A stretch of DNA of 64,000 nucleotides from positions 64,001 through 128,000 of the forward strand of contig CAVYTU010000011.1 in NCBI GenBank assembly GCA_963771465.1. Direction: 5' to 3'. Origin of the DNA: an uncultured delta proteobacterium (GTDB lineage Bacteria > Desulfobacterota > Binatia > UBA9968). Below the pieces are notes generated by a model. The model saw only the letters and a program-made list of their open reading frames with translations. It searched no databases and was not told where the DNA came from. Shown one piece after another: positions 7,235-23,032 of the stretch; the first letter of the stretch is position 1, and every line of letters begins with the position of its first letter. Made by a program: the position numbers and the translations under genes.

Positions 7235-7930
7235 ATGAAAATATTGATCGTGGAGGACAATCCCATTAGTGCGACAGTGCTGGAACACACTCTCGATAAA
7301 CACGGCTACGAAACGCTTACTGCGCACGACGGCGAAGAGGCATTAGCCCATCTCGAGTCACACCCGGAGATTGAACTAATCATCACCGATTTGATGATGC
7401 CCAACACCGACGGCATCGAGTTGGTGCGCCGCATGAAAGCGCGTAAAGAATGGAATGCCATCCCGGTCTTGGTTTGCACCTCGATGCCGCCTGAGAACGC
7501 CAATCAACGGCTCAATGGTCATGGCTGGAAATACATACTCAAGCCGATCAATGCCGAGAGTCTTATCCAAAAAGTGAATGAAACGATCGCCCAACAAACC
7601 ATGGTGTTGCAGGACCCGGCAATCACTATGACCCAGATCGGTATTGATCCCGGGGCATTTGCTGAAGTCGTGGAAAAATTTGCCGAGACCGTTAATGAAA
7701 AAATAATCCGTCTCGAACAGCAAGCTGACAATGTATCGGCCAATGCGGTGGATTTGAGAGATCTCTTGGAAGGCGCCAAGCTGGTGCGAGCTGAACGGCT
7801 TACCAAAGTCCTCACTAGCCTGGAAAATAGTTGGGATGAGCAAGATCAAGAATTGGTTCGTTCGACCACGCCTTTGTTATTGAGGGAACTCAAAGTAATG
7901 CAGTATCATCTCAACCTCTATTCCTCCTAA
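7235..7930 (+). CDS. Response regulator: REC domain plus degenerate HPt-like helical domain
   Basis: ILIVEDN, ITDLMMP (phospho-Asp), KP motif; C-terminal helical bundle without the HPt His; RBS AAGGAG. Confidence 0.85.
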   Translation: MKILIVEDNPISATVLEHTLDKHGYETLTAHDGEEALAHLESHPEIELIITDLMMPNTDGIELVRRMKARKEWNAIPVLVCTSMPPENANQRLNGHGWKYILKPINAESLIQKVNETIAQQTMVLQDPAITMTQIGIDPGAFAEVVEKFAETVNEKIIRLEQQADNVSANAVDLRDLLEGAKLVRAERLTKVLTSLENSWDEQDQELVRSTTPLLLRELKVMQYHLNLYSS

Positions 7931-7957
7931 TTATCGCGTAGAATTCGAGACCCGCCA

Positions 7958-10900
7958 ATGACCGTGATCGGTAAGATCACCATCTCATTTGTTATTTTTG
8001 CGTCCGTCAGCTTGTTGTCGATGATCATGAGCTTTGATGGTCTGAACGACATCAAGCGCGCCATTTTCCGAGTCAGCGTCGTGGAAGAACCGATCAGCGC
8101 CGCGGTCTACGAGATGCAAATCAAGATCAGCGGCAGCAGCGTAGCCGTACTCAAATATCTTGAAACGGGGGAGTCCGAATACCGCCAGCAGGTTGCCAAC
8201 GATAAAAGCGACTTTGAAATCCTTAACCGCAAGTATGAAAGGTTGGCAACCAAAGAAAAGCAAAAAAAATCGGGTGAAGATATTGGCGAGCTGTACGGGG
8301 AATATCATCGTATCGGTCAGTCCTTGATGAACCAGAAGGAAGAGCAGGAAAATCTCGCCAGCAAAATCATCAAAAGCATCGAAGCGCTCGATGAGATGCT
8401 CGATGACCGAGTGCAATATGGCCAAAGTCCGGTTGGCAGCGACGGAGTCAAGAAAACCGTGATCGCCGGTGAATTGGGCGGCACCAACGCCGCGGTGGGA
8501 ACTTGGCTTGGCCATTTTCTGCGAACCTCGAAAAAAGAATACAAAGATCGAATATTTGACAGCGCCAAGGAGTTTCGCAGGCATCTCGAGGCGCTGAAAA
8601 TGTTTAAATTGGAATCGAGAGAACAATTCTGGGTGAGGGACCTTGAGGTGCGCTTTAATCGGACCATGTCCATGGTCCAGGCGGTTTTGGCGATTCATGA
8701 CTCGCTGCAACGAGGGCAAGATCAGTTTCTCAACGCGCGCGCCAAAATGGAAGTGCTGGTCAATGATGACTTACAACCCTCGGCGGCGCAAAATCTAGAT
8801 CAATCCAAGAAACAAGCCGACGCGGCATCGAACTACATTATTTGGATCTACAGTCTGCTAATTCCGTCGTTTATTATTATTTCGATTGGCGCGGCGCTGC
8901 TTATCATCCGGAGTATTCGCAGACCGCTCGATCAGCTAATGAAAGGCACCGATGCCGTAAGCAATGGCGATCTGACTTATCGCTTGTCGATTGGCGGGCG
9001 CAATGAGTTCGCGGAACTGGCAGAGAATTTCAATCAAATGGTGACTCGATTGCAAGCGACTACCGTTTCCAAGCAAGTTCTGGAGTTGAGTGACGCGCGC
9101 TTGCGCGAGGTAAATGGCGAACTGGTTCGGGAGGCTACCGAGCGCAAACGGGCGCTGGCACAGTTTCAACTTCTGGTGGAGTCGGCGCCCAACGGCCTTT
9201 TGATGGTCAACAGCACGGGTACGATCGTCTTGGCTAATACCCAGATCGAGAAAATCTTCGGTTATAGCAAGCGGGAACTGCTAGGTCAGCCGATCGAAGT
9301 GTTGCTGCCGGGCAGCTTCCGCGGCCCGCATCCGTTTCGTCGGGAACAATCCTTCACCGGACCTGAGAGCCGGACGGTGGGTGCCGGGCGGGAACTTCGC
9401 GCCACGCGCAAGGACGGCAGCGAGTTCCCTGTTGAAGTCGGCTTGAACCCAATCGAGACATCCAACGGATCTCACGTGCTCGCGAGCGTCATCGATGTCA
9501 GTGAGCGCAAAGCGGCGGAGAATCGCCAACACCAAACCGAAGAGCGTTTTCGTGCGACCATCGAAAACGTTCAGGACCACGCGATCTTTATGCTCGATCC
9601 CGCCGGCCAGGTGCTGACATGGAATAAGGGAGCTGAACGGATGCGGGGATATCGCGCCGATGAAATTATTGGTGAACCCCATTCGACTTTCTTCTCGGCG
9701 GAAGACCAGAAAAGCGGCAAACCCGATCAGCTATTGAATACAGCGATTACAGTCGGTCAATGCGAAGACGAAGGTTGGCGTTTGCGCAAGGATGGATCGA
9801 AATACTGGGCCAGCACCGTGTTGACCCCGGTGTACGATCGGGTCGGGCAGTTAACTGGCTTTGCGACGGTGACCCGTGACCTCACGCGGCACATACAAAT
9901 AGAAGACGAATTGAAACAGGCCAAAGATGCGGCTGAAGCGGCGAACGAAGCGAAGTCCGAGTTCTTGGCCAATATCAGTCACGAGATTCGCACGCCGATG
10001 GCGGGCGTGATCGGCATGTCGGGACTATTGTGTGAAATGGACCTCACCGCTAAGCAGCGGGAATACTGCGAGATTATCAGACGGTCCGGCGAATCGTTAC
10101 TGACCATCATCAACGAGGTCTTGGATTTTTCCAAGATCGAGTCGGGTAAGCTGGAGATGGAGATTATCGATTTCGATCTGCGTAGCGCGGTGCAAGAGGT
10201 GGTCGAATTATTCGTGCGCCAGGCGGACGACAAGGGAATTGAGCTGATTAATTTTATCCGCCCCGACGTGCCGACGAATGTGCGCGGCGATCCCGGACGA
10301 CTCCGGCAGATTCTCTCCAACCTGCTCGGCAATGCGCTTAAATTTACGACCACGGGAGAAGTGGTTGTTGGAGTCGATGTTGTCGAGCAGAACAACAATT
10401 CGCTTACCTTGCGATTCGAAGTGAACGATACCGGGATCGGTATCGCCAAAGACAAAATTGATAAGCTGTTCAACGCATTCACTCAAGCAGACTCGTCGAT
10501 CACACGAAAGTACGGCGGGACCGGCCTTGGATTGGCGATTTGTAAAAAGTTCGTCGAACTGATGAATGGCGAGATCGGTGTCAGCAGCGAAGCTGGTCGT
10601 GGCAGTAGTTTCTGGTTCACCTTGCGTTTAGAGAAAAGCCCTTTGAGTGAGCCGCGACCGAATCATGCGGATTTAAGCGGGCTGCGCATGCTGATCGTCG
10701 ATGATAGCTCAACCAACCGCGCGTTGCTGGAAAGCTACCTAGGTTCTTTGGGAATTCACAGCCAGAGCACAGGCGACGTTTCTTTAGCGATAGATAGTTT
10801 GCGAGCAGCTGCGAAAAGCGCCAAACTGCCGCACCTGATTTTATTGGATTCAACGTTGCCAGGGATGAATGGTATCGAATTGGCGCGGCAGATCAGGCGA

Positions 10901-11911
10901 GAGAGCGAGACAGGCGAGCTGAAGCTCTTGCTCATGACGAAGGCGAGCAAAAAAATTGATCTTGGATTGCATGAAAATGCCGGCATCGACGGGTTTCTCA
11001 CTAAGCCAATCGGTTTGGCGCATCTGCTCGAGAGTTTGACCGTGGTGATGGGGAAGGCGGCAACCACGCAGGATTCAAATGGCGTGACTTCGCCGCTCAC
11101 CAAACCGGATTCTACCACGCAGCGGCCGCTACGGATTCTCGTGGCCGACGATAATCACATCAATCAAAAGGTCGCCGCGAGTTTGCTCGAAAATTTCGGC
11201 CATCGCGCCGACGTGGTGGCCAATGGGCACGAGGCGATCGAGGCTTACAAGCTAGTGCCTTACGATATCGTTCTGATGGACGTGCAGATGCCGGAATTGG
11301 ATGGCTTTGAAGCGAGCCGGAAGATTCGTGCGCTGGAGACAAAAAAGAACCGCCATACACCGATCATCGCAATGACTGCGCATGCCAGAAAGGAAGACAA
11401 AGAGAAATGTCTGGCGGCGGGCATGGACGATTATGTGTCGAAGCCGGTTAAACCACAGGATCTGAAAGCCGCTATTGCGCGCAGAGTCGCTGCAACGATG
11501 GTCATTCAGCAGACGATCGAGCCTCCGACAGAAGCGCCAGCGCAGGCCGACGTACTTAACTTTTCACACGCGTTGGAGTTAGTCGATGGTAACCGCGAGC
11601 TACTTTGTGAAGTGGCGCGCATCTTTCTCAACCAGTATCCGAAAGTAATCGAAGAGACCCGGCGCGCGCTGTCGCGGGAGGATTACGACACACTGACCAG
11701 CGTAGTCCATAGCTTGGTCGCATCTGTGGGACAGATCGGCGGTCAAAGGGCTTGTACCGCAGCGCGCAAGTTAGAACTTATGAGCAGCGAAGGGGACCGT
11801 TCCCAGGTTCCGGCTGCCCTCGCCGAGTTGGAAAGAGAAATCATGTGGCTCAGATCGGCGATGTCCGATCCGGCTTATTTTCGATTGCAGCCCGACGAAT
11901 CCCTCCACTGA
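7958..11911 (+). CDS. Hybrid sensor histidine kinase (TM-periplasmic-HAMP-PAS-PAS-HisKA-HATPase-REC-REC-HPt)
   Basis: H-box FLANISHEIRTPM, N-box LRQILSNLLGNALKFT, G-boxes DTGIG and GGTGLGL, two REC domains, HPt VHSL. Confidence 0.95.
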   Translation: MTVIGKITISFVIFASVSLLSMIMSFDGLNDIKRAIFRVSVVEEPISAAVYEMQIKISGSSVAVLKYLETGESEYRQQVANDKSDFEILNRKYERLATKEKQKKSGEDIGELYGEYHRIGQSLMNQKEEQENLASKIIKSIEALDEMLDDRVQYGQSPVGSDGVKKTVIAGELGGTNAAVGTWLGHFLRTSKKEYKDRIFDSAKEFRRHLEALKMFKLESREQFWVRDLEVRFNRTMSMVQAVLAIHDSLQRGQDQFLNARAKMEVLVNDDLQPSAAQNLDQSKKQADAASNYIIWIYSLLIPSFIIISIGAALLIIRSIRRPLDQLMKGTDAVSNGDLTYRLSIGGRNEFAELAENFNQMVTRLQATTVSKQVLELSDARLREVNGELVREATERKRALAQFQLLVESAPNGLLMVNSTGTIVLANTQIEKIFGYSKRELLGQPIEVLLPGSFRGPHPFRREQSFTGPESRTVGAGRELRATRKDGSEFPVEVGLNPIETSNGSHVLASVIDVSERKAAENRQHQTEERFRATIENVQDHAIFMLDPAGQVLTWNKGAERMRGYRADEIIGEPHSTFFSAEDQKSGKPDQLLNTAITVGQCEDEGWRLRKDGSKYWASTVLTPVYDRVGQLTGFATVTRDLTRHIQIEDELKQAKDAAEAANEAKSEFLANISHEIRTPMAGVIGMSGLLCEMDLTAKQREYCEIIRRSGESLLTIINEVLDFSKIESGKLEMEIIDFDLRSAVQEVVELFVRQADDKGIELINFIRPDVPTNVRGDPGRLRQILSNLLGNALKFTTTGEVVVGVDVVEQNNNSLTLRFEVNDTGIGIAKDKIDKLFNAFTQADSSITRKYGGTGLGLAICKKFVELMNGEIGVSSEAGRGSSFWFTLRLEKSPLSEPRPNHADLSGLRMLIVDDSSTNRALLESYLGSLGIHSQSTGDVSLAIDSLRAAAKSAKLPHLILLDSTLPGMNGIELARQIRRESETGELKLLLMTKASKKIDLGLHENAGIDGFLTKPIGLAHLLESLTVVMGKAATTQDSNGVTSPLTKPDSTTQRPLRILVADDNHINQKVAASLLENFGHRADVVANGHEAIEAYKLVPYDIVLMDVQMPELDGFEASRKIRALETKKNRHTPIIAMTAHARKEDKEKCLAAGMDDYVSKPVKPQDLKAAIARRVAATMVIQQTIEPPTEAPAQADVLNFSHALELVDGNRELLCEVARIFLNQYPKVIEETRRALSREDYDTLTSVVHSLVASVGQIGGQRACTAARKLELMSSEGDRSQVPAALAELEREIMWLRSAMSDPAYFRLQPDESLH

Positions 11912-11968
11912 AATTCCCTTCACAAACTATCGGTCGCCAGTTCCGGCAATCTGCCGAGCCCTCCTTGA

Positions 11969-12026
11969 CAGGCTAATTCGATCTTCATCAAAGACGGGAT
12001 AGTCCAGGCGATTGGCACCGGCTTGC
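11969..12026 (+). pseudogene. Relic fragment of a second amidohydrolase gene (paralog of 4568-4625)
   Basis: 58-nt ungapped match to 4568-4625 with 8 mismatches; QANSIFIKDGIVQAIGTGL vs QADSIFIRDGIVQAIGTGL. Confidence 0.8.
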
Positions 12027-12069
12027 GAGACGAAAGTTGGACGATATCAACTTGCTACTCTGGCTGCCC

Positions 12070-13842
12070 GGTTGAGGCGGGAAAGCTCGATCTGGAGATC
12101 ATCGATTTTGATCTGCGAAGCGCAGTGGAGGAAGTCACGACTCTGTTCACCCAGCAAGCCGCGGACAAAGGCATTGAGCTGATGAATTTTGTCCGTTACG
12201 ACGTGCCCGACAAACTCCAAGGCGACCCGGGCAGGCTGCGCCAAATCCTTTCCAACCTCGTCGGCAACGCACTTAAGTTTACGACGAAGGGCGAGGTGGT
12301 AGTTCAGGTCAACGTCATCGAGCAAAACAATACGTTCGCGACGCTTCGATTCGAGGTAATCGACACCGGGATTGGTGTTGACCGTGAAACGGTCGGTAAA
12401 CTCTTTAAGGCCTTCATTCAAGCCGATGCTTCGATTACCCGAAAGTACGGTGGGACTGGGCTCGGGCTAGCGCTATGCAAGAAATTCGTCGATCTCATGG
12501 GGGGACAAATCGATGTAACCAGTGAGGTCGGTCGGGAAGCAACTTCTGGTTCACCATTCAGTTATTTAAGAGCCAGGATGGCAGACGGACATCACCGCAG
12601 TCCCGCGCCGATCTCTCCGGCTCACGGATGCTCATCGTAGACGGTCACACGACAAGCCGCGCCGTGCTGGGTCACTACCTTCGCCATTTGGGGATTCGCG
12701 GCGAGAGCGCGGAGAATGGCCGAGTTGCGTTAGAGCGATTGCAAGCATCGCTGGACAAGGACGAGCCTTACGACCTGGCGCTGCAGGAACGAAGATACCG
12801 GGGCTGGGTGGCATCGAACTAGCTCGTACCATTAGGCAAAACCCGAGATTTGCTTCCATCAAATTATTGCATTTGACTACCGTGGGTAAGAGAGGCGATG
12901 GAGCGTTGGCGCAGCAGGCCGGAATCGACGGTTACCTAACCAAGCCACTTGGGGTATCGCAATTGCAGGAATGCCTGGCGCTCATGCTGGGGCGGAGTCC
13001 AACCATCGGTGCTTGCGGCTTCCGTAGCGGAGCGAAGGGGGCAGCATCGTCTGCGTTTCCTCGTGGCTGACGATAACCACATCAATCAAAAAGTCACCAC
13101 TAGTTTGCTTGAGAAAATGGGCCATCGAGCCGATGTTGTCGGCAATGGCAAGGAGGCGGTGGAGGCGTATAAACTAGTTCCCTATGACGTCGTGGTCTTA
13201 GATTTGTAAATGCTGGAGATGGATGGCTTTGAAGCGTGCCGGCAAATCCGGTTGCTCCAGCAAAATCGCGATCATCAAGCGATAATCGCCGTCACGGCTC
13301 ATGCCGTCAATGGATTCAAAGAAAAATGTCTGCGCGCCGGTTTCGACGACTACGTGGCGAAACCGATACTACCATTGGAATTGAAAGCGGCCATCGAAAG
13401 AACCGCAATAACGAACGACGGCTCGAATGGGTTGGCGCAATCGCCCAATCCGGCCACCCACGGCATTGTCGATGTTGCTGATGCTCTGGCTCGGCTTGAG
13501 GGAAACCAAGTACTGCTTGACGAAATCGTGCAAATATTTTTGCAACAATATCCGCGGCTCCTGGCAGAAATTCATCAATCCTTGTCATCGGCGGATTGTC
13601 ATGCTCTTACCAGCGCCGTCCATACCTTGGGATCTTCGGCGGGACAAGTCTGGGTCACCAACGCTCTTGCGATTGCTCGACGGATTGAGGGGATGGGTGA
13701 TCGGAAAGATCTCGCCAGTGTGCCGGAGACCCTCGCACAGTTGGGGGCGGAACTTGCGCTCGTGGAATCAACCTTGGCCACCATGGCTTTCGATCGACGC
13801 GCCCCGACCGGCACATCTAATATTTCGACACAGGGTACGTAG
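12070..13842 (+). pseudogene. Decayed copy of the HATPase-REC-REC-HPt half of the upstream hybrid kinase
   Basis: Colinear with about 10136-11900; no H-box or start; frameshifts near 12535, 12600, 12790 and 13010; in-frame TAA at 13207-13209 (DL*M for DVQM). Confidence 0.88.
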
Positions 13843-14197
13843 TGCGGATCGCCTCTCGCATCTCCCATGCTGGATTCGTCGTCATGAGAGCATCGATTTA
13901 CAACCCACCTTGCCACAACCATCGCGTGGTCGCGAGCCGCAATTACGAACTTCCAAAACGTTGACGAGTTTTCCATACATAACCGAAGGACGTTACTGCA
14001 GGATCGCGCCTAACTCGGCGCACACAATTACGTCAACCGAGGAATCCGGACTGAATCGATGCCCGAATGGGTTTGAGACCGTTGACCCGCAATCGACGAA
14101 AATCTAAGATTTGTCCTAGGAATTGTAAAGCTTACGGAATCCCAGTACACCATTTTGAGATCAAGACCGGACTGATGATTGTCGGCCATAGGAGTCA

Positions 14198-14593
14198 ATG
14201 ATGAAAATCGTTCACACGATGATACGAGTCAACGATCTCGCGGAAAGTTTGAAGTTCTATTGTGACGGGCTTGGCATGAAACTCTTAAAGAAAAGAGATT
14301 ATGAATCAGGCCGTTTTACCAACGTGTTTGTCGGCTATGGATCGGAAGAGACCGATGCGGTGATCGAGCTGACTTACAATTGGGACACGCATTCATACGA
14401 TCTCGGCAACGGCTTCGGCCATATCGCGCTTGGCGTGCCTGATGTTTATAAAACCTGCGATGAGTTGCGCGCCAAAGGCGTCAAGATCGTGCGCGAACCG
14501 GGTCCGATGAAACACGGCAGCGGCAGTAACGCCATCGCCTTCCTGGAAGATCCCAACGGTTACAAGATCGAGCTGACGACGCGGGCGGAGTAG
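14198..14593 (+). CDS. gloA: Lactoylglutathione lyase (glyoxalase I)
   Basis: HTMIRV, ELTYNW, GNGFGHIA, REPGPMK, EDPNGYKIEL. Confidence 0.95.
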   Translation: MMKIVHTMIRVNDLAESLKFYCDGLGMKLLKKRDYESGRFTNVFVGYGSEETDAVIELTYNWDTHSYDLGNGFGHIALGVPDVYKTCDELRAKGVKIVREPGPMKHGSGSNAIAFLEDPNGYKIELTTRAE

Positions 14594-14644
14594 CGCGTTA
14601 TGTATGGATCGATGGCCGCCGGTGGCCTGGGATCGCTCGCGTCG

Positions 14645-15373
14645 TCAGAATTTTTCATGCTCGACTTGCTCGATGGCGATGCGTTCCTTGCTAACCGTGC
14701 TCTCGGTCGCTGCCTTTTTCACGTATTTCTGGAGGCGTTCGTCGAATTGAGATTCTGTGACGATCTTTCGGCCGGTTAAAAAGTTCGTGCTTTGTTCAAC
14801 CCGCGCGCCGGTGGCTCGATCTCTGTCGGCGAGATCGACGCCAATGAGCCAAAACTTGTCCGTCCTCGAGTCGTATTTGAAACGAAAGGTTTGCTCAACA
14901 ACGTTTCTAGAGCCGCGCTCTTGCATGACGATCAAAATTCCTTTCAAGATCGTCACTTTTGCGGGTGCGTTGGTGACACCGTAGAAAGCGCCGCCGCAGG
15001 TTGAGCACTGGAGCAGTCGTTCGGTGAAAGCGGCGCGGCGCAACCGGCCGTCGTGTTGGCGCAGCAAAATTAGCAGCCCGCGCCGGCGCTCGGCGCCGCC
15101 AATCTCTTCAGCCGATGAGTTAGCCTGGCGCAGCGTGAGCGCAACGTCGGTTCGCTTGTCGCCATTCAAGTCGCCGAGACTTTGCGCTTCGATGTTCCAG
15201 CCAGGTGGAACCCATTCGCGCTGGCTTGCCACCGTCGACGGGAAGAGCGCCGTTGATGAGATCCTTTGCGGTTGAACGGCTGCGCCCGAGGATGGCGACA
15301 GGAGTGACAACACGACGATCAGCGACAAACTCGTCGTCGGTCGTAACTTGGGATGCATTACGTACAACTGCAA
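14645..15373 (-). CDS. Exported hypothetical protein with GDLNGD Ca-binding-type loop and CxxC; candidate lysozyme immunity protein
   Basis: Signal peptide, WVPPGW, GDLNGDKRTD, CSTCGG; 29 bp downstream of the GH19 gene on the same strand. Confidence 0.6.
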   Translation of the reverse strand: MQLYVMHPKLRPTTSLSLIVVLSLLSPSSGAAVQPQRISSTALFPSTVASQREWVPPGWNIEAQSLGDLNGDKRTDVALTLRQANSSAEEIGGAERRRGLLILLRQHDGRLRRAAFTERLLQCSTCGGAFYGVTNAPAKVTILKGILIVMQERGSRNVVEQTFRFKYDSRTDKFWLIGVDLADRDRATGARVEQSTNFLTGRKIVTESQFDERLQKYVKKAATESTVSKERIAIEQVEHEKF

Positions 15374-15402
15374 CTGTGAGATTTTTGCCGCGATGGCAAT
15401 TT

Positions 15403-15960
15403 CTAAGTCGTGTAGCTAATCGCGGCGTAATAACTCTTGCCGTAACCGGCAATCAAATTGGCTTTGTCCAGACCGTTGATGATCCTGCGCGCGTTCATCC
15501 AGTCATCCTTGTTGGGATTGAAATAAGTACTTAGTCTCACACCGGTGAAGGTACCTTCCATCATGCCCTGAAAGAGAATCCGCGTGGCGACTTTCAGGCC
15601 GAGAGCGAGTTCCGGACGGTTAACCAAATCGACCTTGAGTTTCTTGCCCATGGATTGGTAGTTACTTTTCCAGGTGAGTTGGACGAAACCACGACCGTAG
15701 TACGTATGACCGGTAACAGAGTCGGCGACACCGTAGGTCCGCCCCTTGCCTTTGCCGTATTCCTCGATCGGCTGCATGGTTCGATCGGTCTCGTGGTGAG
15801 TCGTCGCGAGCATGTAGGCGAGCCAGCGATCATCTTTTTTGGCGTACTTGCGTTCCCATTCGGCAAGGATGGCGTTGAAGCCGTCGACATGGCTTTGACG
15901 CAATTTGCCGTCGAATAGATGGCAGCGCACGTGGTCGAAAAAAAATTTTCGATTGATCAT
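15403..15960 (-). CDS. Glycoside hydrolase family 19 (phage-type endolysin/chitinase)
   Basis: AYMLATTHHET, YYGRGFVQLTWKSNY, ARRIING motifs; strong RBS GGAGGA. Confidence 0.88.
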   Translation of the reverse strand: MINRKFFFDHVRCHLFDGKLRQSHVDGFNAILAEWERKYAKKDDRWLAYMLATTHHETDRTMQPIEEYGKGKGRTYGVADSVTGHTYYGRGFVQLTWKSNYQSMGKKLKVDLVNRPELALGLKVATRILFQGMMEGTFTGVRLSTYFNPNKDDWMNARRIINGLDKANLIAGYGKSYYAAISYTT

Positions 15961-16053
15961 ATCATTCCTCCCCGTATGAATTTAGTCTTCGTGTCATTAC
16001 AGTGAATTGGCGCCGATGATTGACTAATTTTAATTCGTGGCTCGCTGAAAAGC

Positions 16054-16088
16054 CAGTTCCGTGAGCGCTCAATTGCGCTCCGGAACTG
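16054..16088. other. 14-bp inverted repeat with a single bulged base
   Basis: CAGTTCCG-T-GAGCGC-TCAATT-GCGCTC-CGGAACTG. Confidence 0.5.
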
Positions 16089-16496
16089 TCGAGCTATTGG
16101 CGTACAAGAGAAAAAAAATGATGGCCCGGGTCATTTTAGCTGATACCGTCGAATCTTTATTGTGGCGGAAATTATTTTTAGCTACCTTAACGTCCATGGC
16201 ACATATTTCATAGCGCAGCCCATCGTTATTCCTGCTGCGGGCCAGCCGCCAAAGATCATCGAAGAATATCTCGGCATCGTGCATGCTGGAGAATGGGTGC
16301 GATACAGTCACTCCTGTCACGGGCGATGCTGGCGGCGGAAGTCTGTGAGTTCACCCGGGCGGCGCGGAGCAAAAATTCCTGGTGTCCTGTTTTCGCGTTC
16401 AGATGACGGATTACCTTGTAAAGCGAGCTAATCTCTGGCTGGAAATAGCGCCCTTCTTCGGTTAGCGTAATAGTCTGACTCCTTGCTGGAAAATCC

Positions 16497-18549
16497 ATGA
16501 TCATGAACATTTGGTCCAATCGCCGGTTGAATCTCGCCAGTATCGGCTACCGGTTGCGGCAAAGTGGGTTGCTGGAGCCGTCGCCGGGTCCCACGAGCCG
16601 CCGCCGTATTCGGGTGTTTGGGCTGGTTTTCTTAGTTGCTGGTTGCACCAGCTTGTTCTATACCTTCATCCGTCCGGCGATCTACCGCGCCACCGCACGG
16701 CTTGAAGTCACGCCTGCGTTGGCCGCTCCCCAGAACAAAGACAAAGTTTCGATCTCGGTGGGCGAGAAAGGTTCGCAAGCTTTTCTTACCGAAGTTCAGG
16801 TGCTCACGAGCCGGCCGCTTCTGGAAAAAGTAGCCGAGCGTCTGAGCAAATCGACCAGCCTGGCGCAAGATCTCGGCGCCGATGCGGTGACGCGCATGCA
16901 GCAAATGCTCGCCGCCTCGCCGGTGGAAGGGACCAACGTCGTACTGTTGAGCGCCGAGGGCCGACAGCGTGAATTCTTGCCGGAGCTCGTTAACATGGTT
17001 GCCGAAGTCTACCGCGATCAACTCATCGAAACGTTCCAGAGCGCGACGCGCAACGCGTCGGGAGGCGCGGGTGAAGAGGTGCGCGTCTTGGCCAAAAAAA
17101 TAGCCGAGAAACGCGAAGTCGTGGAAGCTTATCGCTTGCTCCACAACATCGTATCGCTGGAGCGAGATGAGAATCAGGTGTTGTCGGGTTTGAAAGGTTT
17201 GGGCACGTCGCTCAATGCCGCCAATGACCGGGCGGCGAGCGCGGAAGGAAAGCTTCAAGCGATAAAAAGCTCCATGGCAGCAGGCAAGTCCGTGGTGCGC
17301 GCTAAGGATAACCCAACGATCGCCAACATGGAGCAGCGTGCCTCACAGATCAAAGAGGAGCTGCGCGATCTCGAACGGCGCTTCACGCCTCAATACATGG
17401 CTAAAGACCCGCAAATCAAATCAATGCGAGCGCGGCTGGAAAACCTCGATCAGCAGATTAAAGCTGAGCGCCAGGCGAGCCAAAAGGCCGCTTTAGATGA
17501 AGCTCAAGAAGAACTCATGAGCGCGCGCGAGGCGATCAATCGGCTACGCCAACAGCTAACGAACGACAAGCAATCGGCGCAGGCTTTTACCTCGCGTTTT
17601 AACGAATACAAGTCGATGCAGAGAGGAGTTGAACCAGTTGGAAAGCGCCCATCGTGCCGCGCAAGAGCGTTTGGCCAATCTCGAGGCGAGCGCGCGAACG
17701 CGCAGGCCACAGTTACAAATTCTCGAGGCGGCGACAGTGCCGCTCGAGCCGTCGAGCCCACACTATCTGCGCGACGCCGGCATCAGCGTGGTCGGCTCGC
17801 TAGTGCTCGCGTTTATGGCCGCGTTGCTGGCCGATTTTTTCTACCGCGGCGAGCCCCAGCCGGCCATGGTAATGACGCAACCCTGGATATCTGTGCCGTT
17901 CTCCCGTGAGATCGACGTGACGCAAGCGCAGGCGCTGCCGAGAGCACCGGTCAACGCGTTGCCGCCGGCGCAACCGGCGCCGCGGGAGCTTTCCCAGGAG
18001 GAACTCTCGGCACTGCTCACCGCCGGTACCGACGACGGTCGAATAGCGGTCGCGGGTTTGCTGATAGGTCTCACGTGTGATGAATTGATAAAACTCTGTT
18101 GGCACCATGTTGACCTCGATGGCGGTAAAATTCATGTCGCTGGAGATTCGCAGCGCAACTTGGCAGTGAATGAAACATTGGCCCATTTTCTGAATTCCGT
18201 CCGCGGTGATGCCAACCAACCGGAGACCACCGTCCTCAGCGACGGACAGGGCAAACCATTCACGGTCGACGATGTCAGAACTTTGATCGTCTACACGTCA
18301 CTCGATGCCGGGATTGAGCACGCGCAGGAGATCACGCCTCAAGCCATTCGCTACAGCTACCTCGCGTTTCTTTTGAGCCAGGGCGTTCGCTTCGCCGATA
18401 TTGGTAGAATCGTCGGACGGCTTACCACCGACGAGATGGCGGCGTGCGCTGGGTTGGTCTCACCACAATTGCAACATGTGCCGCTGGAGCAGGTCGAACG
18501 AATCGTGCCTGCGCTGCGCGATTTCAAGTTTGCGGAACGCGCCATCTGA
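16497..18549 (+). CDS. Wzz/GumC-like polysaccharide co-polymerase-type membrane protein fused to a degenerate tyrosine-recombinase catalytic domain (about 683 aa; 1-nt insertion near 17621)
   Basis: TM1, then PAIYRATARLEV and EVQVLTSRPLLEKVAERL (Wzz), long coiled coil, ILEAATVPLEPSSP-TM2, then integrase box I/II-like sequence from about 17983; ATGCAG-A-GAGGAGTTG joins the two ORFs. Confidence 0.8.
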
Positions 18550-18588
18550 GTTAGCGATCAAGCCGAATTGCACTTCGGAAGTGTTTGA

Positions 18589-19017
18589 TTATTGTTCATT
18601 TCTCTGTCGAAGGACGATATTCGTTGCCGATTCGACGCAGATCAAACGCATCACACCAGGTTTGTCGTTGGCGAATGGACAGACAGTGAATTCGGCGAAT
18701 AGCTCGTCGTCAAGACTGCCGAGTCGTGCGCGGACGTGGGGCGGAATATTGTCGATATCAGGGTGAGCGAAACGGCCTTCAGAGATGCCGAGCAAGCGAG
18801 TCGTTCCTACCGGCCAGATTCTCAAGCTCGGTGTCCCGTTATAGATCGATAGTCGTCCGCGCAGCTTGAAGCATGGACCGGAGAGTTGCGGATGCTCCTT
18901 GCAGGATTTTATCCTGATCGATTCCCCAGCCTGGCACAGACCATAAATTACCAAAAAGACCGCCAGGTTTACGGCACCGAAACTCATCAGTCGATAAACT
19001 CCCGCCTGATGTTTCAT
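18589..19017 (-). CDS. Exported Cys-containing hypothetical protein
   Basis: ATG at 19017, 8 bp after the DUF456 stop; hydrophobic signal and 4 mature-domain Cys (GPCFKLRGRL...VCPF...ICVESA). Confidence 0.6.
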   Translation of the reverse strand: MKHQAGVYRLMSFGAVNLAVFLVIYGLCQAGESIRIKSCKEHPQLSGPCFKLRGRLSIYNGTPSLRIWPVGTTRLLGISEGRFAHPDIDNIPPHVRARLGSLDDELFAEFTVCPFANDKPGVMRLICVESATNIVLRQRNEQ

Positions 19018-19025
19018 GGCCCGGT

Positions 19026-19511
19026 TCAAAAAAATCGCACCACAGCGAAGATGCCGAGCATGGTTAACGCCAGGGCGATCTTGAGCGCGGCGCCGAGGAC
19101 GAGGCCGATCGTGGCGCCCATGCCGGCGCGAGCGGCCTGTTGGAGATTCCTGCGCGCCGAAAGCTCGCCGATGACGGCGCCGATGAATGGGCCGAAGATG
19201 ACGCCTGGAAGACCAATAAAAATGCCAGCGATGGCGCCGAGCAGCGCGCCGATGATCGCGCGCTTGGAAGCGCCGAATTTTTTCGCGCCAAACATGGTCG
19301 CCCAAAAATCGACGCCGTAAGTGAAGAGCGCCAAAATTGCCAACGCAATGATCGTCCATATCCCGACGTAGCTGAATCCCTCGGCCCACGCCGCTAAGAG
19401 CAGGCCGGCAAAAATTAGCGGCGCGCCGGGAATTGCGGGTAGCACCAGCCCGACTAGACCAATCACGACCAGCGCGGTGGCGCCGACCCAGTAAAACAGA
19501 AGACCTTCCAT
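19026..19511 (-). CDS. DUF456 family membrane protein
   Basis: GLVLPAIPGAPLIFAG, GAKKFGASK, GPFIGAVIGEL. Confidence 0.88.
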   Translation of the reverse strand: MEGLLFYWVGATALVVIGLVGLVLPAIPGAPLIFAGLLLAAWAEGFSYVGIWTIIALAILALFTYGVDFWATMFGAKKFGASKRAIIGALLGAIAGIFIGLPGVIFGPFIGAVIGELSARRNLQQAARAGMGATIGLVLGAALKIALALTMLGIFAVVRFF

Positions 19512-19544
19512 GTCGTTGCGCCGCTATATCGGCGGCCTTGTCTG

Positions 19545-20339
19545 CTAACGCGCTTTGCGTCGCTTAAGCCTATGGATTTTTCTGTGCTGAAAGTCGCTGG
19601 GGTTTGGCAGTAGGGGTGTCATTTCTCTTTGGGTGAGGCGGAGCGCGATAATCTTGTAGACCTCCGGCGAGAAACCGAAACCGAAATGGGTCGTTTTGAC
19701 TTCGATATGCTCGACATTGGGAGTTTCTCTATCGATACAGGCTTCCCAGGCGACTACCGCGTCGGCTCGGGAATAGATCGCGATGACGGGAATTTCCAGG
19801 ACGGCGAGCTGATTGCGCAACTCGACTTCGGCGGCGATGGCCTCGATGTCGATGCCGCGCTTGCGATAGGATGCAGCGACGACAGTGTATTTCGGCCCGC
19901 CGATCACCGGCGTGCCGAGGGTGATGACCTGGCGGACCAGATCGGGACGTTCGCGCGCGAGCTCGCGGGCCAGGTAACCGCCGAAGCTCCAACCGATGAT
20001 CGTGACCTTTTGATTGGTGCGCCGTGAGAAAGAGCCGAGCCGCTTGAGGACGCGCGGCAACAGCTCGGTGACCGCGCCGATGTTTCTTCCCAAACCCCAA
20101 CCACGGGCGCGATAGCCGAGCAGCCGGAGATATATTTTGAGGATCGTCGTGGAGCCGTCGCCGGCGCCGTAGCCTGGCAGGATCAATACGGGATGCTGCG
20201 TGCCGCGCGGCTGCAACGCCAGCTGCGGCAAGCGGACAAGCAGCTTGGCCAACTCCATCACACCGAGCAGTTCTCGTATTAAGCCCGAGGAGTTTGGCGG
20301 TTGAAAACTGTCAACTATGGGGTTGTTCAAATGAGTCAC
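19545..20339 (-). CDS. Alpha/beta hydrolase (esterase/lipase family)
   Basis: PVLILPGY, nucleophile GWSFGG, ITLGTP, YSRADAVV, HFG. Confidence 0.9.
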   Translation of the reverse strand: MTHLNNPIVDSFQPPNSSGLIRELLGVMELAKLLVRLPQLALQPRGTQHPVLILPGYGAGDGSTTILKIYLRLLGYRARGWGLGRNIGAVTELLPRVLKRLGSFSRRTNQKVTIIGWSFGGYLARELARERPDLVRQVITLGTPVIGGPKYTVVAASYRKRGIDIEAIAAEVELRNQLAVLEIPVIAIYSRADAVVAWEACIDRETPNVEHIEVKTTHFGFGFSPEVYKIIALRLTQREMTPLLPNPSDFQHRKIHRLKRRKAR

Positions 20340-20429
20340 AGGTAATCAGAAAATCCCCGCTAGTTTACAGTGGCTGCGAGGTAAAGAGAAGAGCAAAGCG
20401 TCACAGTGCTAACGCCGCCGTCGCGGATA

Positions 20430-20876
20430 GTCAAAGAATCGCAGTGCCCTCTCGGAAGCGGGATAGCGGAGGTGGGCAACGATTTCCTTTTTCATCCGAC
20501 TGGTATCGGCGATGACCGAGGTCATGCCCCTCTCTATCATGTCACGGGTGAGTGGGCTGCGCGGGCCGGCGGCGAGTGCCGCGTCGACCAGGTTTTGCGT
20601 GTAGATGGTGTTGGTTCGGTGCAGGAACTCTTGCGGATGAGGTTAAAACAGAACGCCGGCGAGGTAAACGATGCAATCGATGTTTGCACAAACTGGCCGT
20701 AGCGAAGCGAGATCATTGAGATCGCCGCGGACAATTTCGGCATTAGCGCTCAGTGGCAAGTCGAAAGGCAGAGCTCGCTTATGCGTAAGCAGCCGAAGCT
20801 GATGCGGACTCGACAGCAGATGCTTCGTTAACAACGAACCGAGATTTCCCGTTGCACCGGCGATGAGAATGTTCAC
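20430..20876 (-). pseudogene. NAD-dependent epimerase/SDR pseudogene (nonsense codon plus large internal deletion)
   Basis: ILIAGATGNLG Rossmann start; TAA at 20645-20643, frame continues PHPQEFLHRTNTIYTQNLVDAALAAG then jumps to a C-terminal-like SPLTRDMI...ADTSRMKKEI..LRYP. Confidence 0.78.
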
Positions 20877-20883
20877 GCCATTT

Positions 20884-21528
20884 TCACGCTTTCGTCTTCC
20901 CAGGAAACGGGCAAATATCTTTGACTGTGCACTCGGGGCATTTGGGTTTTTTGGCGAGGCAGACGCGGCGGCCGTGGTACTGCATCAGGTGGCAGAAACG
21001 GACCCGTTGCTTTTCCGGGACGATGGCCGTCAGGTCGGCTTCGATTTTGTCGGGGTCGGTCTTTTGGGTTAAACCGAGGCGCTGTGACAGGCGCATGACG
21101 TGGGTATCGACGCCGATGGTTTGGCGGCCGAAGCTGTTGCCGAGGACGATGTTCGCGGTTTTGCGGCCGACGCCGGGGAGGTTGACTAGATCGTCTAGAT
21201 TGTCCGGCACTTTGCCGTTAAAGCGCTCGACCAGTTGCTGACAACAATTGTGAATTGCTTTGGCCTTGGTGCGGTAGAAATTGATCTTGCCGATCTGGCT
21301 CTCGAGTTTCGCCGGCGGCGTGCTGGCGTAGGCGGCGGCGCTGGGGTTGGCTTTGAACAACTCCACCGTGACTTTGTTGACCAGATCGTCACGCGCTTGG
21401 GCGGCAAGGATGAGCGCGATGAGCAGTTCCAACGGATTGGTAAAGTCGAGATCGAGTTTGGCGTCGGGATGAGCTCTCTCCAGCCGCGCGATTAATTTTT
21501 TTACGTCCATCTTCTTTTTTGCAGCCAC
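20884..21528 (-). CDS. nth: Endonuclease III
   Basis: HhH LPGVGRKTANIVL, VDTHV, 4Fe-4S motif CLAKKPKCPECTVKDIC. Confidence 0.96.
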   Translation of the reverse strand: MAAKKKMDVKKLIARLERAHPDAKLDLDFTNPLELLIALILAAQARDDLVNKVTVELFKANPSAAAYASTPPAKLESQIGKINFYRTKAKAIHNCCQQLVERFNGKVPDNLDDLVNLPGVGRKTANIVLGNSFGRQTIGVDTHVMRLSQRLGLTQKTDPDKIEADLTAIVPEKQRVRFCHLMQYHGRRVCLAKKPKCPECTVKDICPFPGKTKA

Positions 21529-21610
21529 GGATTCTCCCCCGGCGCGACGATTTTGGTTTTGGCGAAAAATATGGTAGCAAAAAGCCTGTCATAAATGGAG
21601 GAATTTAGAA

Positions 21611-21967
21611 ATGGAAGCTAATGCAACGACGACCGCGAAGCAAAAAATTCAGCAGCTGAAGAAGCAAAAAGTCGAGATTCACACCGCTTCGCTCGATCGT
21701 GTAAAAGTTAGAAGGATTCAGCGGAAAATTAAACTGCTTAAGCGACAAACCCGCGACCTCGCTGGGGCGAAGAAATTAGCCGCTGCGAAAGCCGCCGCCG
21801 AGGTCTCAGCCAAAGAGGCGGCCGAGAAGGCCGCAGCGGCTGCCGCCGCAGCAGCAGCCAAGGCCGCTGAAGCCGCACAGGCGGCAGAAGCAGCCGCCGC
21901 CGCCAAAGCCGCTGAGGCGGCCGAGGCAGCAGCCGCAGCCAAAGCCGCGGAACCAGCGGCCGAATAG
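21611..21967 (+). CDS. Small basic coiled-coil protein with Ala/Glu/Lys low-complexity tail
   Basis: RBS GGAGGA; Lys/Arg-rich N-half; AAAAKAAEAA repeats. Confidence 0.7.
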   Translation: MEANATTTAKQKIQQLKKQKVEIHTASLDRVKVRRIQRKIKLLKRQTRDLAGAKKLAAAKAAAEVSAKEAAEKAAAAAAAAAAKAAEAAQAAEAAAAAKAAEAAEAAAAAKAAEPAAE

Positions 21968-21976
21968 CCACTTGCC

Positions 21977-23032
21977 ATGAATACGCCGCCTCCTCTGCGC
22001 GGCCGCGGCTCGGCGAGCAATCCGAAGAACCGTTTCGAGTCCATCGAGCGGGTGCCCGAGCCGCCAGAGGATGATGACGACATCTCTTCGCCCCACACGC
22101 TGTTTTTCCCCGACAGCTCCAAATCCATCGTCGCCTACAACGACAGCCCGGACGTCGGCTTCGACGCCAGCGTCAATCCTTACCGCGGCTGCGAGCATGG
22201 CTGTGTTTACTGCTACGCTCGGCCCACGCACGAGTATCTCGGCTTCTCTGCCGGCCTGGATTTCGAGACCAAGATTATGGTCAAAGACGATGCGCCGGAG
22301 CTTTTGCGCCGAGAATTGTCGAGTCCGAAATGGAAGCCACAGTTGGTTTCACTGAGCGGCAACACGGACTGCTATCAGCCGGTGGAAAAACAGAAACAGT
22401 TAACCCGGCGTTGCCTAGAAGTGTTGCTCGAATTCCGCAATCCCGTGGTGATCGTCACGAAGAATCATTTGGTGACCCGCGACATTGACGTACTTTCGGA
22501 ATTGGCCAAGTTCGATTGCATCGGCGTGACGCTGTCGCTGACGACCTTGGATCACAAGCTGGCTGCGTTGATGGAGCCACGCGCGTCGCGCCCGTCGCGG
22601 CGTTTGGATGCGATTGGTAAACTCGCCGATGCCGGCGTGCCGGTCGGCTATCTGCAAGCGCCGATGATTCCGGGGCTGACGGATTCCGAGGCGCCGGCGA
22701 TCGCGCTGGCCGCCAAGAAAGCCGGCGCGACCTTTTCCGGCTACGTCGCGCTGCGCTTGCCGTTCGGCGTGAAAGATTTGTTCGAACAGTGGCTGCAACA
22801 ACACTATCCCGACCGGAAAGAAAAAATTCTCCACCGCGTGCGCGAAATCCGCGGCGGCAAGCTCAACGATGCCAATTTCAAATCGCGCATGCGCGGCGAG
22901 GGGATTTACGCCGAGCAGATGGCCAAGCTGTTCGATCTCGCGCGCAAGAAGTCGGGGATTACAGCCAGATGGCCGAAGCTCACGACCGAACACTTTCGCC
23001 GGCCGGGGAAGGATCAGTTGAGTTTGTTTTGA
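21977..23032 (+). CDS. PA0069/Rv2578c-family radical SAM protein (SplB-related)
   Basis: NPYRGCEHGCVYCYARPTH, NTDCYQPVE, C-terminal QLSLF clamp-binding motif. Confidence 0.93.
   Translation: MNTPPPLRGRGSASNPKNRFESIERVPEPPEDDDDISSPHTLFFPDSSKSIVAYNDSPDVGFDASVNPYRGCEHGCVYCYARPTHEYLGFSAGLDFETKIMVKDDAPELLRRELSSPKWKPQLVSLSGNTDCYQPVEKQKQLTRRCLEVLLEFRNPVVIVTKNHLVTRDIDVLSELAKFDCIGVTLSLTTLDHKLAALMEPRASRPSRRLDAIGKLADAGVPVGYLQAPMIPGLTDSEAPAIALAAKKAGATFSGYVALRLPFGVKDLFEQWLQQHYPDRKEKILHRVREIRGGKLNDANFKSRMRGEGIYAEQMAKLFDLARKKSGITARWPKLTTEHFRRPGKDQLSLF

Follow-up and report, generated by a model that had tools for sequence, protein, structure and literature searches.

A Wzc/Wzz-type membrane protein family with a degenerate tyrosine-recombinase fold as its cytoplasmic domain

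How long capsules, O-antigens and biofilm polysaccharides become, and how they are exported, is determined by polysaccharide co-polymerases (PCPs), whose cytoplasmic control, as far as known, is exerted through tyrosine autophosphorylation by a bacterial tyrosine kinase (BY-kinase), either fused or acting as a partner. Here we describe a gene at positions 16497–18549 of the plus strand of a 64,000-nt stretch (the window) of contig CAVYTU010000011.1 from an uncultured delta proteobacterium of the Binatia lineage UBA9968 (assembly GCA_963771465.1); read through one surplus base, it has 684 codons including the stop and encodes a protein of about 683 amino acids (aa). The family to which this protein belongs shares with Wzc of Escherichia coli K30 (a PCP-2a protein; 7nhr, 9r68) the membrane topology, the periplasmic fold and a folded cytoplasmic domain after the second transmembrane helix (TM2). 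It differs from Wzc in that this domain has a recombinase fold and not that of a P-loop kinase, in lacking a C-terminal tyrosine cluster, and in that Wza, Wzy and Wzx are not its neighbours in most loci.

The curated family that best matches the N-terminal part is TIGR03007 (pepcterm_ChnLen), the XrtA chain length determinant, with which the proteins described here share proteobacterial genomes; however, canonical TIGR03007 proteins are about 520 aa long and have no C-terminal domain, and the scores obtained here (54 bits for the window protein and 37–66 bits in 8/8 family members scanned) all lie below the cut-off of 278.85. A precedent for a PCP with a non-catalytic cytosolic domain is provided by GumC, whose cytosolic domain is discussed as a 'pseudo-BY-kinase' (PMC9800525). 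The C-terminal domain (C-domain) has the catalytic-domain fold and the colinear motifs of XerA, XerC and XerD and keeps their second Arg, the His that follows it, the β-hairpin Arg and usually the Tyr, but it lacks the core-binding domain, the first Arg, the Lys and both His, is acidic rather than strongly basic, and is tethered to the membrane. Domesticated, inactive tyrosine-recombinase folds are also described for MrpR/YopR of SPbeta and SroF of phi3T (PMC10516654); these are soluble DNA-binding phage repressors, whereas here the fold sits at the C-terminal end of an envelope protein and carries a charge that speaks against DNA binding.

A co-polymerase scaffold followed by a recombinase fold

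The original prediction, made from the letters of the window alone, proposed a Wzc-like PCP scaffold with a recombinase fold in the position of the BY-kinase. Pfam matches, structural models and Foldseek searches agree on this architecture, and all the motifs quoted in that prediction are present in the translations of the window open reading frames (ORFs). The N-terminal two thirds of the protein is a PCP of the Wzc/GumC/Wzz type. The first piece of the gene (16497–17621, plus strand, as is everything in the gene) encodes the cytoplasmic N-terminus, the first transmembrane helix (TM1), the α/β base and most of the periplasmic helices. It contains a Wzz match (PF02706) at residues 35–115 of the piece (16599–16841; E = 1.9e-7, 31.7 bits, above the gathering score of 25.5), and TM1, the hydrophobic segment VFGLVFLVAGCTSLFYTFI with RRRIR before it, lies at 16614–16670. 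On the basis of the RRRIR motif ahead of TM1 and the family assignment, we infer that the N- and C-termini are both cytoplasmic. The second piece (17623–18549; ORF 17629–18549) encodes the end of the coiled coil, the Pro-rich PCP motif ILEAATVPLEPSSP, TM2 (AGISVVGSLVLAFMAALLADFFY, 17776–17844), a linker, the recombinase fold and the stop. This piece is colinear with residues 379–681 of the closest relative, P0001, a 681-aa protein that is 90% identical to it.

A full-length model of P0001, built with 76 family sequences, reached a predicted local distance difference test score (pLDDT) of 87.5 and shows the two transmembrane helices (TM1, residues 30–56; TM2, 421–447) around a large periplasmic domain, with an α/β base (60–153) that carries the Wzz signature together with TM1, and long helical hairpins (158–399). 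A disordered linker (451–484, pLDDT <50) is followed by a compact C-domain (498–673). The corresponding linker in the window (17845–17982) is Pro-rich, cytoplasmic and poorly conserved; its mean pairwise identity in the family, 0.260, is the lowest of any region. When the P0001 model was compared with the Protein Data Bank (PDB) by Foldseek, Wzc came first (9r68_I, E = 1.8e-9), followed by XerA and then by WzzE (3.8e-6) and KpsE (2.1e-5), with template-modelling scores of 0.2–0.3, which are low, as expected with long flexible helices. Pfam and NCBIfam scans detected neither a BY-kinase nor another kinase family in the window pieces or in the family members scanned, and a C-terminal Tyr cluster is absent from them. 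The NCBIfam scan of 8/8 family members stayed far under every cut-off, and no model names the family. A homo-oligomer prediction with four copies of the C-domain scored 0.02 (mark 0.42), a value that weighs neither for nor against oligomerization.

The cytoplasmic domain (17983–18546) has the fold of a Xer-type catalytic domain. Although the window copy scores just below the Phage_integrase cut-off (PF00589; 25.5 bits against 27.1), the family is listed for 29/44 relatives in the precomputed Pfam column. An AlphaFold model of the C-domain (pLDDT 91.3, predicted template-modelling score 0.89) has XerA as its top Foldseek match (5hxy; E = 1.1e-7, template-modelling score 0.70), followed by other Xer proteins and by the integron, Tn1549, lambda and Cre recombinases. 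There were 33 matches at E ≤ 1e-3, and those listed are tyrosine recombinases or the repressor SroF (9rgl_G, 9.3e-4); YopR (8bpz) was matched at 3.8e-3. In addition, a profile of 69 family C-domains found XerA (7.8e-15) and XerD (7.3e-11) in the PDB, so that the recombinase fold proposed by the original prediction is borne out both by the model and by the family profile. The matches to XerA and XerD start at the catalytic domain (residue ~99–134) and only the disordered linker precedes it. Between TM2 and the catalytic fold lie just ~35–45 linker residues, which leaves no room for a core-binding domain, whose absence had been predicted; the P0001 model agrees.

The catalytic set of tyrosine recombinases is R-K-H-R-H/W-Y. 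Its columns were located by residue-by-residue alignment to XerD and XerA in two sets, one of 45 rows (the window and 44 relatives) and one of 69 rows (the window and 68 species-representative genomes). Among the 45 rows, the first Arg is found in 0, the Lys in 3, the first His in 0, the second Arg in 43 and the second His in 1, and the Tyr column holds Tyr in 37, Cys in 7 (the window and P0001–P0006) and Leu in 1. The corresponding counts in the 69 rows are 3 (first Arg), 0 (Lys), 1 (first His), 59 (second Arg), 5 (second His) and 66 (Tyr); the β-hairpin Arg is present in 69/69 and the His after the second Arg in 66/69. The changes first read in the window copy (R>T, K lost, H>Q, H>R and Y>C) were confirmed by this alignment, leaving it only the second Arg, one of the six residues. 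Loss of the catalytic Tyr, by contrast, holds for the window and its six closest relatives (7/45) and not for the family, which has Tyr in 66/69; the window clade has Cys in place of the Tyr, and Tyr or Phe in place of the His that follows the second Arg. A search of the 69 rows for homologues with an intact catalytic set found none, the maximum in any row being 3/6. Taken together, these data show that the C-domain descended from a Xer-type catalytic domain and that 3–5 of the 6 catalytic residues have been lost in every member.

The C-domain is as conserved as the periplasmic part (mean pairwise identity 0.407 and 0.411, respectively), and the ratio of non-synonymous to synonymous substitution rates (dN/dS) is 0.14–0.47 over the 25 closest pairs, which indicates purifying selection.

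Family distribution, genomic context and proposed role

A search restricted to longer proteins returned 44 full-length relatives of 557–711 aa, and a scan with one genome per species returned 91 relatives, from which 80 loci were kept. The 91 are mostly from Beta- and Alphaproteobacteria (Thiobacillaceae, Gallionellaceae, Aromatoleum, Thauera, Accumulibacter, Zoogloea and Casimicrobiaceae), with single metagenome-assembled genomes (MAGs) labelled Binatia, Verrucomicrobiia and Gemmatimonadota. When 1.84 billion representatives were searched with a profile, 257 clusters (50% identity) were matched at E ≤ 1e-30. The in-frame fusion is thus widespread in independent genomes, as the original prediction required. 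Half of the best 150 of the 257 clusters (75) have a length of ≥600 aa and end in the domain. The short matches in this set start in the periplasmic domain, TM2 or the linker, and 31/75 have no initial Met; from their sequences they look like gene fragments and not like a stand-alone C-domain. Labels of the ESM Atlas clusters read 'hypothetical' or 'putative GumC family', and a literature search whose coverage left out subscription journals returned no paper describing the fusion and no functional description, in line with what had been stated at the outset. The proteins therefore form a conserved, uncharacterized inner-membrane family of ~680 aa. One pair stands out by its closeness: the C-domains of a Binatia MAG (L019:10001–10561) and a Verrucomicrobiia MAG (L024:5964–6524) differ by a synonymous divergence (dS) of 0.10, and the proteins are near-identical in the tree, which reflects either a very recent inter-phylum transfer or a mis-binned contig.

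The gene occurs in 14/401 genomes of one proteobacterial order (~3.5%) and in 14/201 genomes of one family (~7%). The two samples overlap, with G041, G126 and G261 as carriers in both, and the open frames in the 14 + 14 carriers are 600–795 aa long, except for one 255-aa frame at a contig end. Carriers are enriched for the exosortase XrtA. In the order sample, XrtA was found above its cut-off in 14/14 carriers and 102/387 non-carriers (Fisher p = 1.6e-8), and in the family sample in 13/14 carriers and 71/187 non-carriers (p = 6e-5); the tallies of 116/401 and 102/387 include G339, G071 and G424. All of the five named carriers have XrtA, and in 5/5 a canonical TIGR03007 gene lies beside it, which makes the fusion protein an additional paralogue. 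In a small subset of loci the gene comes immediately after an exosortase-A-associated O-ligase; at L035 this neighbour scores 558 bits for TIGR03097, and its cluster recurs upstream of the gene in 3 loci. In several genomes, G041, G574 and G630 (Rhodocyclaceae-type) among them, the gene lies on the same contig as XrtA at a fairly constant 46–51 kb, and in G058 and G167 it is ~13 kb away; the fairly constant distance suggests that the gene is not randomly placed but borders a large, conserved exopolysaccharide region.

In one betaproteobacterial subclade (L020, L038, L046, L061 and L070) the gene has another setting that also hints at polysaccharides, with a protein of 630–1208 aa preceding it. 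At L061 this upstream protein has 1208 aa and carries VanZ, DUF4962 and heparinase II/III-like domains; in 4/5 of the subclade loci (not L061) a GMC-type oxidoreductase and a short-chain dehydrogenase follow the gene.

We see an even chance that the protein is a PCP-type oligomer for exopolysaccharide assembly in which the dead recombinase domain is a non-DNA-binding regulatory or docking module. By analogy with other PCPs it would oligomerize, and it would work in exopolysaccharide assembly or export, in Proteobacteria as an accessory paralogue beside the XrtA/PEP-CTERM polysaccharide system. The dead recombinase domain would neither catalyse a reaction nor bind DNA but would serve in the cytoplasm to regulate the protein or to dock others, comparable to the cytosolic domain of GumC. 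It may control how the PCP clusters, it may draw in a partner (a separately encoded tyrosine kinase, for instance) or take input from one, and its partly conserved pocket (second Arg, hairpin Arg and Tyr) may bind an anionic or phosphorylated ligand. A more specific and tentative version, which we think rather less probable, is that the family is a new PCP subclass in which a domesticated Xer domain has taken the place of the BY-kinase as the module that controls the ring from the cytoplasm. A phosphorylated or anionic signal would be sensed by its conserved Tyr/Arg pocket, or the pocket would itself be phosphorylated, and this would be coupled to XrtA/PEP-CTERM floc-forming export.

If true, the family would offer the first instance in which the control of envelope polysaccharides makes use of a DNA recombinase fold. 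An inactivated recombinase domain in the position of the BY-kinase would add a new kind of control module to the PCPs and would clearly illustrate how the fold of a DNA enzyme can be put to work elsewhere than on DNA. Accumulibacter, Zoogloea, Thauera and Aromatoleum are important in wastewater flocs; given that these genera are carriers and that the gene tracks with XrtA/PEP-CTERM, the family is a concrete candidate, open to test, for a regulatory component still missing from the picture of how flocs and exopolysaccharide form, and cultured carriers such as Aromatoleum buckelii, A. anaerobium and Thauera phenolivorans exist for genetics.

Several observations weigh against a role in exopolysaccharide assembly, or against a domain without recombinase or DNA-binding function. 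All-against-all clustering of the ORFs of the 80 loci and the window, in search of conserved neighbours, gave a top neighbour cluster in only 5 of ~73 loci with a called gene. The 30 recurrent neighbours, identified with Pfam and NCBIfam, are mostly housekeeping (ABC transporters, MurB, FadB, UvrC, PhnA, TrpBA and PHA synthase). With the neighbourhoods unconserved, a polysaccharide function lacks operon-level support in most genomes and likewise in the window. There, the 10 neighbouring ORFs scanned (7235–23029) include no polysaccharide gene, so the association with Wzy, Wzx or Wza seen for other PCPs is lacking; this bears out the earlier remark that no wzy, wza or glycosyltransferase gene lies nearby. 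Exosortase (TIGR03109/PF09721) had no match in the window genome or in two carriers of the same genus, and XrtA exceeded its cut-off in just 1/5 further carriers, four of them from outside the sampled order and one (L065) of unknown order. The Fisher values given above overstate the association, because related genomes are not independent. As for the domain itself, IntDOT is an active recombinase without the first Arg, so a single missing residue is no proof of inactivity; here four are missing. The retained Tyr, second Arg and hairpin Arg could mean residual chemistry or specific DNA contacts, and a local basic DNA-binding patch is possible despite the net negative charge.

Integrity of the window copy and alternative roles for the domain

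The window gene is split into two overlapping plus-strand ORFs, 16497–17909 and 17629–18549. The first makes sense up to 17621 (...FNEYKSMQ), and the other frame takes over from 17623 (EELNQLESAHR..., EELNQLESAHRAAQERL). P0001 runs without interruption across the break site (...KSMQEELNQLESAHR..., also given as ...EYKSMQEELNQLESAHR...), which places one surplus base in the window at ~17620–17622, where it reads CAG A GAG GAG and its relatives have ...Q E E.... Contigs from three studies (X2, X4 and X5, all from soil or rhizosphere metagenome runs and with 1–4 other differences from the window) have one letter fewer at 17620, in 3/3 runs that cover the site; a further run, X1, does not cover it. 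The best public run contains 0.65 of the sampled words of the window, and none matches the stretch exactly; three public runs recorded as RNA contain 0.11–0.16 of the sampled words, and one of these is probably DNA. As all three contigs are without the extra base, the in-frame gene is the form present in near-identical organisms. The prediction that removing one base near 17621 would yield a protein of ~683 aa therefore stands, on the evidence of the P0001 alignment and of the contigs. A programmed frameshift is ruled out, because the base is simply missing from near-identical relatives.

For the window copy alone, it is close to an even call whether the gene is a true pseudogene, acquired horizontally and decaying in a host without the partner system. 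The frameshift lies in a non-homopolymer context, and the window genome has no exosortase match. Homologues of Nth that are 84–86% identical to the copy in the window genome bear the names Binatia or 'Deltaproteobacteria', and this genome is probably one of Binatia. A full-length homologue was found in 2/24 other genomes of the same genus (a count that includes the non-carrier G005), with 36–39% identity. A FastTree phylogeny built from 75 full-length rows pairs the window clade with alphaproteobacterial sequences as its sister group (support 97), whereas the two same-genus homologues are placed elsewhere, together with a Verrucomicrobiia MAG; a Gemmatimonadota MAG and Burkholderiales sequences join that clade one step further out. 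This split indicates separate horizontal acquisitions. A decayed partial duplicate of a histidine kinase gene 3.5 kb upstream indicates that real pseudogenes occur here. Looking for the signal of a foreign island, we found the guanine–cytosine content flat over 10–24 kb of the window. Against decay, however, the lesion is single, both pieces are otherwise open and 83–93% identical to the intact P0001, the 3/3 near-identical contigs of other studies are in frame, and the assembly (19 contigs, 6.9 Mb) may contain indel errors.

The original prediction saw the cytoplasmic domains as a ring of DNA-binding pseudo-recombinase modules. On this alternative they would still bind DNA, and the protein would act as a tether of DNA to the membrane, an envelope-coupled transcriptional regulator or a DNA sensor. 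The fold is unmistakably that of a DNA recombinase, from Foldseek and the family profile alike; YopR and SroF are among the structural matches, and the hairpin Arg, the second Arg and the Tyr are kept at the frequencies given above. Moreover, recombinase-fold repressors such as MrpR/YopR bind DNA without catalysis (PMC10516654). However, the charge of the domain argues the other way. Its isoelectric point (pI) has a median of 5.14 and its net charge is negative in 68/69 rows (−10 and pI 4.95 in the window copy), whereas 15 genuine Xer catalytic stretches from genomes related to that of the window have a pI of 9.5–11.3 (median 10.2) and a net charge of +5 to +17. Recombinases use the core-binding domain, absent here, to clamp DNA; Pfam and NCBIfam scans detected no helix-turn-helix or other DNA-binding family; and the proteobacterial co-occurrence is with a polysaccharide and protein-sorting system and not with mobile elements. 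The acidic charge, the absent core-binding domain and the membrane tether together make a DNA-binding ring unlikely, and we regard DNA binding in any of these forms as improbable.

To a similar degree, we doubt that the Tyr/Arg pocket is used chemically, either on a non-DNA phosphoester or with the Tyr as a phospho-acceptor or BY-kinase docking site that replaces the Tyr-cluster tail of Wzc. In favour of such a use, four residues persist despite the other losses, namely the Tyr (66/69), the second Arg (59/69), the His after it (66/69) and the hairpin Arg (69/69), and the ~520-aa PCPs in the XrtA clusters of carriers are too short for a fused kinase. Against it, the window clade has replaced the Tyr with Cys and the His with Tyr or Phe and is nevertheless intact over 62–90% identity, no kinase gene is a conserved neighbour, and the Lys and both His needed for phosphoryl transfer in recombinases are absent. 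The tyrosine kinase of the XrtA cluster is separately encoded. A phage integrase is reportedly a phosphorylation target (Kolot et al. 2008, cited in PMC9800525), and the kinase is reported to be Wzc.

Other genes around the window locus

An antisense ORF that overlaps the start of the gene (16259–16519, 87 aa) was considered as a regulator fragment and dropped, as it had no Pfam match. Two genes lie upstream and divergent on the minus strand. One (15406–15960) encodes a small protein with a weak match to glycoside hydrolase family 19, which is chitinase- or lysozyme-like. The other (14648–15373) encodes a protein of 242 aa without a Pfam match that gives the impression, by eye, of being secreted. 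Further upstream, 7931–11911 encodes an intact hybrid histidine kinase of 1326 aa, and just downstream of it, at 11969–13842 on the plus strand, its C-terminal half occurs a second time in part (HATPase, two receivers and an Hpt-like end). This copy is without the sensor and HisKA part and is broken up among four or more reading frames, so that it has the look of a tandem duplicate in decay and of a real pseudogene.

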